From assembly GCA_964016885.1 (NCBI GenBank), contig OZ024751.1, positions 37,634,001 to 37,698,000 of the forward strand: a stretch of DNA of 64,000 bases, in the 5' to 3' direction. How positions within the stretch are numbered: position 1 is the first letter of the stretch; every line of letters begins with the position of its first letter. Below the pieces are notes generated by a model. That model saw only the letters and a list, made by a program, of their open reading frames with translations, was not told where the DNA came from and ran no database searches. This document shows positions 18,748-19,017 of the stretch, one piece after another. The position numbers were made by a program, and so were the translations under genes. This DNA comes from Eledone cirrhosa. Its lineage: Eukaryota.

Positions 18748-18806
<59 letters not shown>

Positions 18807-18840
18807 CGAAACCTAAGTCAATTGCATGAACTCATAATCT

Positions 18841-18910
18841 TTTATTTACTGCTATATATATTTCGATGATAGCCATTGAATGGCTATGACCTCATCAGTT
18901 AGTTAGCCAG
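18841..18910 (-). ncRNA. Minimal type I hammerhead ribozyme motif in a ~165 bp insert between two (TA)n tracts
   Basis: Minus strand reads CTGATGA-GGT-C-ATAGCCA-TTCAA-TGGCTAT-C-ATC-GAAA-TATATA-TA. Core, stem II and palindromic stem III are intact. Stem I is weak or mutated. Confidence 0.75.
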
Positions 18911-18966
18911 TTCTTAGATATGCCAGCTCTGTGTTTATGGTATTGATGGTATCAGAGCCTTGGAAC

Positions 18967-19017
<51 letters not shown>

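Follow-up and report, generated by a model that had tools for sequence, protein, structure and literature searches.

A short hammerhead-bearing insert lies between two (TA)n tracts in the 64,000-nucleotide stretch of Eledone cirrhosa DNA that we analysed (hereafter, the window). It is very probably the ~165-bp 3' end of a Penelope-like element (PLE) of the Hydra clade, which likely copied itself into (TA)n and broke off early at a TA-like spot within its own sequence; we predict that the hammerhead of this copy is inactive. The locus at 18803-18971 is in itself ordinary retroelement debris, and its value lies in the comparison among copies, where thousands of natural variants reveal where the hammerhead tolerates change and where it does not. 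Hydra elements, their hammerheads and their targeting of (TA)n have already been published, including in Octopus, and what is new is a modest, testable variant of the ribozyme with a C·C mismatch in stem II.

The insert and its parent element

The original prediction had read a minus-strand hammerhead motif within 18803-18967, between (TA)n tracts, and the motif is there letter for letter (Table 1). The location given for the insert stands, but its 5' limit does not, with element letters reaching 18971. Judged from its sequence, the motif at 18903-18848 (minus strand) is a type I hammerhead, whose cut site is predicted from the hammerhead consensus to lie between 18853 and 18852. The hallmarks of this type, i.e., the core CUGANGA, GAAA, UH and three helices, are all present in the family-form hammerheads; pairing of stem I next to the core, also a hallmark, is not found in the window copy. 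Rfam returned no hammerhead family for either the window or the insert, the insert scan giving two chance matches only. The plain minimum free energy fold of the window copy falls short of significance (z of -1.12 and -1.56), and the 3' tail of the insert has no significant fold either (z of 0.25).

The insert had also been described as unique and as a solo cassette, and neither description survives. All 40 scored candidates (of 773) proved to be full or near-full matches with 95-100% identity, and two words specific to the parent element family, which we label family H, have exact matches at 2,393 and 2,800 sites genome-wide. When the insert was extended to a parent ORF, as had been proposed, an ORF with RT and C-terminal GIY-YIG was found upstream in longer copies. 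The family H unit is ~3.97 kb long and has thousands of genomic copies, and window 18802-18971 matches the last 170 bp of the full unit in locus L032 at 95.9%. Rather than a solo cassette, the insert is a 5'-truncated 3' end of this unit, broken at a hot spot that recurs among the copies. In the partial tandem of L032, a 5'-truncated unit ending in a hammerhead is followed by a full unit ending in a second hammerhead, and an upstream truncated unit of 27-830 bp was seen in 18 of 20 further family H loci that were picked for the 5' end of the element. Partial tandems with a truncated upstream unit are the published PLE layout. The element body contains long TA-rich tracts.

The predicted source of the hammerhead, a (TA)n-targeting PLE, is borne out by the parent ORF and by the ends of the copies. 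The findings named beforehand as telling against it (a single copy, no PLE parent and an unpaired stem I in homologues) were looked for and none of them was seen. The expectation that the insert belongs to a different family from the element at 46 kb in the window, which we label family A, also holds because the two share just a 24-nt core match (83%, E of 0.006).

No complete open frame was found among the 22 long family H loci examined, the longest stop-free stretch being 730 aa (L049). The protein displays MRWR (MRWRAY), ADKT (HADKTNN) and YRDD motifs together with the cysteine motifs CNCRDPSLC (CxCx5C linker), CNLC (CxxC) and CRH (CxH); RWR is present in five of six other full-length proteins, and P0002 has RWK. 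A GIY-YIG-type domain can be read from the sequence (VVY...YIG, then downstream R, H, E and N residues), and CCHH is absent, with one cysteine between the GIY-YIG halves both in L049 and in the window ORF. An AlphaFold model of the family H protein (pLDDT of 76, from an 83-row alignment) matches reverse transcriptases including TERT, with E of 2e-9 to 3e-8, and no GIY-YIG structure is among the fold-search matches listed for it. Pfam gave no match for the family H protein or the window ORF protein, and weak GIY-YIG (E of 0.012) and RVT_1 (E of 0.004) matches in 2 of 19 relatives, while PDB sequence searches with the proteins were blank or weak. The placement in the Hydra clade rests on the motifs, since the published Hydra proteins lie outside our tree. 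The L049 protein also contains two low-complexity insertions, one following the RT thumb (residues ~330-455) and one preceding the CxCx5C linker (residues ~540-586), which are predicted to be disordered and are absent from family A.

Table 1. Features of the insert, its hammerhead and the family A element (window coordinates)
Feature	Position	Strand	Basis or remark
Family H 3' end, 5'-truncated (pseudo-LTR part)	18803..18971	-	95.9% match to L032 unit
(TA)n target tract at truncated 5' end	18972..19013		element letters up to 18971
Stem I, 5' strand	18899..18903	-	ACUAA here vs ACUGC in family H
Hammerhead core CUGAUGA (C3-A9), intact	18898-18892	-	sequence
Stem II, whole	18865..18891	-	sequence; covariation across families; both C's in 92% of comparable cores in the genome
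Stem II basal helix, 3 bp	GGU 18891-18889 / AUC 18867-18865	-	
Stem II C·C mismatch	18888 opposite 18868	-	
Stem II distal helix, 7 bp	AUAGCCA 18887-18881 / UGGCUAU 18875-18869	-	5-nt loop UUCAA
GAAA (18864-18861), then UAUAUA-UA (18860-18853)	block 18853..18864	-	includes A17
Stem III, short, self-complementary (AUAUAUAU)	within 18853..18864	-	sequence
Stem I, 3' strand GCAGU	18848..18852	-	sequence
45-nt tail to fixed element 3' end	18803..18847	-	ends GTCAC, then TA
(TA)27 target tract at element 3' end	18749..18802		
Family A RT + GIY-YIG ORF, intact, 737 aa	47830..50040	-	ORF reading
Family A hammerhead, C·C stem II	46380..46445 (46437)	-	
Inverted 5' copy of family A hammerhead	50403-50468 (50411)	+	

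Loss of stem I in the window copy

The original prediction had asked whether the consensus stem I pairs, and in family H it does. Among the 56 hammerheads in L001-L030 and L035-L054, 51 have ACUGC facing GCAGU, three have ACUAC, one has ACUGG, and ACUAA is found in the window copy only. Set against GCAGU, ACUAA gives A·G and A·C mismatches at the two stem I pairs adjacent to the core. At the two positions concerned, 18899 and 18900, run X1 disagrees with the window in more than 99.8% of its contig depth, and the changes are private to the window copy, concordantly in contigs of three runs. The predicted pairing probability of stem I is at most 0.02 in the window copy, compared to 0.91-1.0 in L002, and the preferred fold of the window copy pairs GCUA with UAGC over the cleavage site, replacing stem I. 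Because both core-adjacent stem I pairs are lost, the hammerhead of the window copy is probably inactive. Candidates with a mismatch at the core-adjacent stem I pair were discarded by Perreault et al.

Origin of the short form

The 3' end of the element is fixed, with TA directly after it, in all 30 loci L001-L030. At the other end, the break coincides with the 5' end seen in the window, or lies no more than a few bases from it, in 22 of the 30 best loci, and eight run on upstream, while genome-wide about a third of the family H copies (756 of 2,393) start right after TATATA at the very 5' point of the window copy. The element sequence at this recurrent break is CTCATA-TG.

We infer that the short form arises by repeated truncation at TA microhomology in target-primed reverse transcription. 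The endonuclease of the element would nick the (TA)n target. Tandem junctions start with TA in 14 of 15 cases, so a read-through transcript could anneal to the nicked (TA)n, and reverse transcription would start where the tandem transcript passes the 3' end into TA-rich sequence. An early stop of copying would then come from the internal CATA-TG annealing to the target. In intact tandems, two hammerheads would pair via the self-complementary stem III and cut the precursor to unit-length RNA, along the lines of the dimer pairing and cutting model proposed for PLE hammerheads (PMC4209133, PMC6765202).

The 165-bp unit might instead resemble a retrozyme or SINE, a non-autonomous element transcribed in its own right and recopied by Hydra enzymes, which would suit the shared 5' start of the 756 copies and the short form in 22 of the 30 best loci; non-autonomous PLE derivatives have indeed been described (bioRxiv 10.64898/2026.07.22.740005). 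We consider this improbable, as the unit has a single hammerhead and ends away from the cleavage site, and no fixed diagnostic site distinguishes 20 cut from 23 extended family H copies. At the one site where cut and extended copies are skewed (p of 0.005), both letters occur in both groups, with the letter of the query favoured. The head-to-tail 165-bp arrays that a retrozyme would be expected to show, i.e., tandem non-coding units each with a hammerhead, are absent from L001-L030. A separate short-form subfamily, also considered, is unsupported because the cut and extended copies share variants.

Short copies could also be longer insertions that were shortened later, by deletion from the internal TA-like spot to the flanking (TA)n, an explanation we regard as more improbable still. 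A junction at TA microhomology suits deletion as well as truncation, and the element body holds TA-rich tracts. However, PLE insertion normally yields copies that share a fixed 3' end and are truncated to varying extents at the 5' end, the upstream tandem units show the same variable truncation, and 3-4 nt of microhomology would be a poor basis for the same deletion to occur hundreds of times. Least probable, to the point of being very nearly discounted, is that self-cleavage sets the 5' end of inserted copies, the cut leaving (UA)4, in keeping with the target sequence. Three of 20 upstream units do start at stem III or the cleavage site (L036, L049 and L052), but genome-wide only 24 copies start with (TA)7 at that site, as opposed to 2,800 with an intact core, and the 756 copies start at another point, about 115 nt upstream. 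For family H this explanation is largely refuted, and the cleavage site was rejected as a hot spot for insert ends. Truncation during target-primed reverse transcription is the reading that we retain.

A hammerhead subtype with a C·C mismatch

Both C's together with a UAU[A/G]UA-UA stem III are found in 70,462 of 76,307 cores (92%) in the 3.0-Gb genome, a ratio unbiased by locus sampling. Reversed-pattern controls gave one site for the both-C pattern, which places the forward count far above chance, and 123 for cores with that stem III. Within the first 100 rows, six cores lack C·C, of which four seem to differ by a single letter from C·C families and the other two look unrelated. In the fetched loci, many of which came from a C·C search, 71 of 73 distinct motifs have the mismatch.

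The neighbouring pairs covary. In an 18-row alignment, 92.7% of cells are paired and two-sided changes occur at 14 of 16 pairs (none of 500 shuffles as high; 33-48% in slid controls), although independence is overstated because of the relatedness of the rows, some of which came from a pattern requiring C·C. The third basal pair is G-C in eight rows, U-A in seven and A-U in three. The insert and the 46 kb element had been thought to repeat one fold, of which the 3-bp basal helix, the C·C mismatch and the U/A palindrome are indeed common to both and to several other families. In contrast, the distal helix starting with AUA is not conserved, since the first distal pair is A-U in nine rows and G-C in seven. 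With the mismatch in 92% of the cores and covarying neighbours, the notion of a conserved ribozyme subtype common to distinct (TA)n-targeting PLE families gained support. Both forms of stem III are predicted to give an 8-bp intermolecular (dimer) duplex, which fits the dimer model.

When C·C was combined with a GAAAC stem III, no genome-wide excess was found (1,348 sites, versus 6,409 for the reversed pattern). A family with a C·C stem II and a GAAAC stem III is seen at G000:C1:92399283 and in seven similar rows (8 of 100 listed), so that the mismatch may not be confined to families with the U/A palindrome. Short PLE-type hammerheads of the standard kind, lacking C·C, also lie beside elements, at L120:6069 (minus strand), L127:5958 (plus strand) and L127:4640 (minus strand).

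The descent of the subtype was approached with a quick, midpoint-rooted RT tree of 72 proteins, comprising 62 of 120 listed relatives and ten from the Eledone genome; four fragments of less than 250 columns were left out and L120 was entered all the same. The ten Eledone rows fall with three Argonauta proteins and four others into one 17-row branch (SH-aLRT of 100), within which they span at least three deep lineages. A link between an ORF and a C·C hammerhead is seen in family H, in family A with its near relatives, and in L126, and it is likely for L127 and L129, both outside the tree. The ORFs of L120 and L131, although present in the tree, were not counted as linked, their hammerheads being 2.5 and 4.2 kb off, across TA tracts.

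Most simply, these sequences point to common descent of the mismatch within one octopod Hydra branch and not to convergence of unrelated PLE groups. All ORF-linked families share that branch, so one origin of C·C suffices, and this would also suit a neutral inherited feature or a tolerated mismatch without a role in cleavage, as would the fact that the published Hydra hammerheads, as far as compared, target (TA)n without it. Neutrality, which concerns the subtype only, is nevertheless unlikely in our view, if far from negligible: the flanking pairs changed on both strands several times while both C's stayed, and both C's are kept across proteins about 40-50% identical. The simplest reading remains common descent together with selection on the mismatch, in which C·C would be inherited from an ancestor of the octopod branch and likely kept by selection. 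Its most likely role, at a guess, would be to let stems I and II dock or flex against each other.

A non-canonical pair that lies outside the core and yet is invariant hints at a contact that has gone unrecognised. It is possible, and we put it forward tentatively and with more doubt than confidence, that the octopod Hydra branch carries a hammerhead subtype of ~70,000 loci in which the invariant C·C is either a selected dock between stems I and II, replacing a loop contact, or a protein handle, and in which the U/A palindrome enforces dimer cleavage. PLE hammerheads are poor cutters in vitro and no role has been settled for them; the C·C, as a possible missing tertiary contact or protein handle, therefore offers a direct test. 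If this reading is true, the young intact family in the window provides a test bed.

Comparison with known systems

Craig et al. (2021, PMC8557442) describe the Hydra clade as C-terminal EN+ PLEs with (TA)n insertion and hammerheads, and include Hydra-1_Obim from Octopus bimaculoides. Family H resembles these elements in its single ORF with RT and C-terminal GIY-YIG, its RW[K/R] and DKT (DKG changed) motifs, its CxCx5C linker, its CxxC and CxH flanking conserved E and N, and its lack of CCHH, as well as in its 3' hammerhead, (TA)n insertion and partial tandems. It differs in having a unit of ~4 kb where Hydra units are generally below 3 kb, length not being diagnostic, and in its long 3' UTR and ~110-aa low-complexity insert. 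In File S2 of the same source, none of 26 Hydra hammerhead rows (6 new and 20 from Repbase) has a UAU[A/G]UA stem III or a stem II with C·C at the fourth position, and an 18-nt motif of the Hydra-1_Obim hammerhead has no exact match in the Eledone genome.

Similarly, the hammerhead shares with the minimal metazoan PLE hammerheads, as covered in part of Cervera and de la Pena (2014, PMC4209133), its type I form, a 5-bp stem I, a long stem II and a short palindromic stem III suited to dimer cleavage, and in both cases most copies are single motifs from truncated PLEs. Unlike those hammerheads, the Eledone motif has no extra nucleotide between A9 and 10.1, and its G10.1-C11.1 pair is not fixed (A-U in 7, G-U in 5 and G-C in 3 of 18 rows). 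The main text of that paper, in the portion compared, mentions no invariant stem II C·C, only a single bulge for D. virilis.

Metazoan non-LTR retrozymes (Cervera and de la Pena 2020, PMC7229834; bioRxiv 10.64898/2026.07.22.740005) are likewise short non-coding repeats with a type I hammerhead and very high copy number. However, retrozymes are tandem units of a few hundred bp, whereas the insert occurs singly and aligns throughout with the 3' end of a coding element. The ~70,000 motifs in Eledone are a large number, but below the 126,247 hammerhead motifs reported for the axolotl. A repeat annotation of O. vulgaris lists recently active Penelope families, with no occurrence of "hammerhead" or "ribozyme". 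In the literature compared, which also took in parts of PMC3088659 and PMC13282606 and, for PMC4209133, portions of the main text, we came across no account of the C·C form.

Family A and the neighbouring sequence

Family A is a complete young element of the Hydra family, occupying window 46250-50510. All 40 scored full-length matches to its end are 100% identical, and the closest named relative of its 737-aa ORF protein is from Argonauta hians. Between family H and family A, protein identity is 50% for RT and 36% for EN (about 45-50% overall). With an intact ORF and identical copies, family A is a good substrate for PLE biochemistry. Further C·C hammerheads in the window lie at 46130 (plus strand), 63234 (minus strand) and 63418 (plus strand) and represent two further families, the last two forming a short inverted pair without an ORF between them.

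To the left of the insert, 18573-18695 (plus strand) is a decayed older repeat (L136-L146; 75-94% identity over 48-112 bp) that carries the 3' half of a hammerhead (GAAAC...GUC), and L146 suggests that the hammerhead of this repeat is of type I and has an unusually extended stem II. Inverted and repeated stubs of 16-24 bp from the end of this neighbour occur at 18680-18750, in the same (TA)n tract, which thus appears to have been hit more than once. Elsewhere in the window, a 3-kb TA-rich array spans 34435-37413, and a 181-bp unit at 54912-55274, present in two head-to-tail copies, is one that we take to resemble an octopus SINE.
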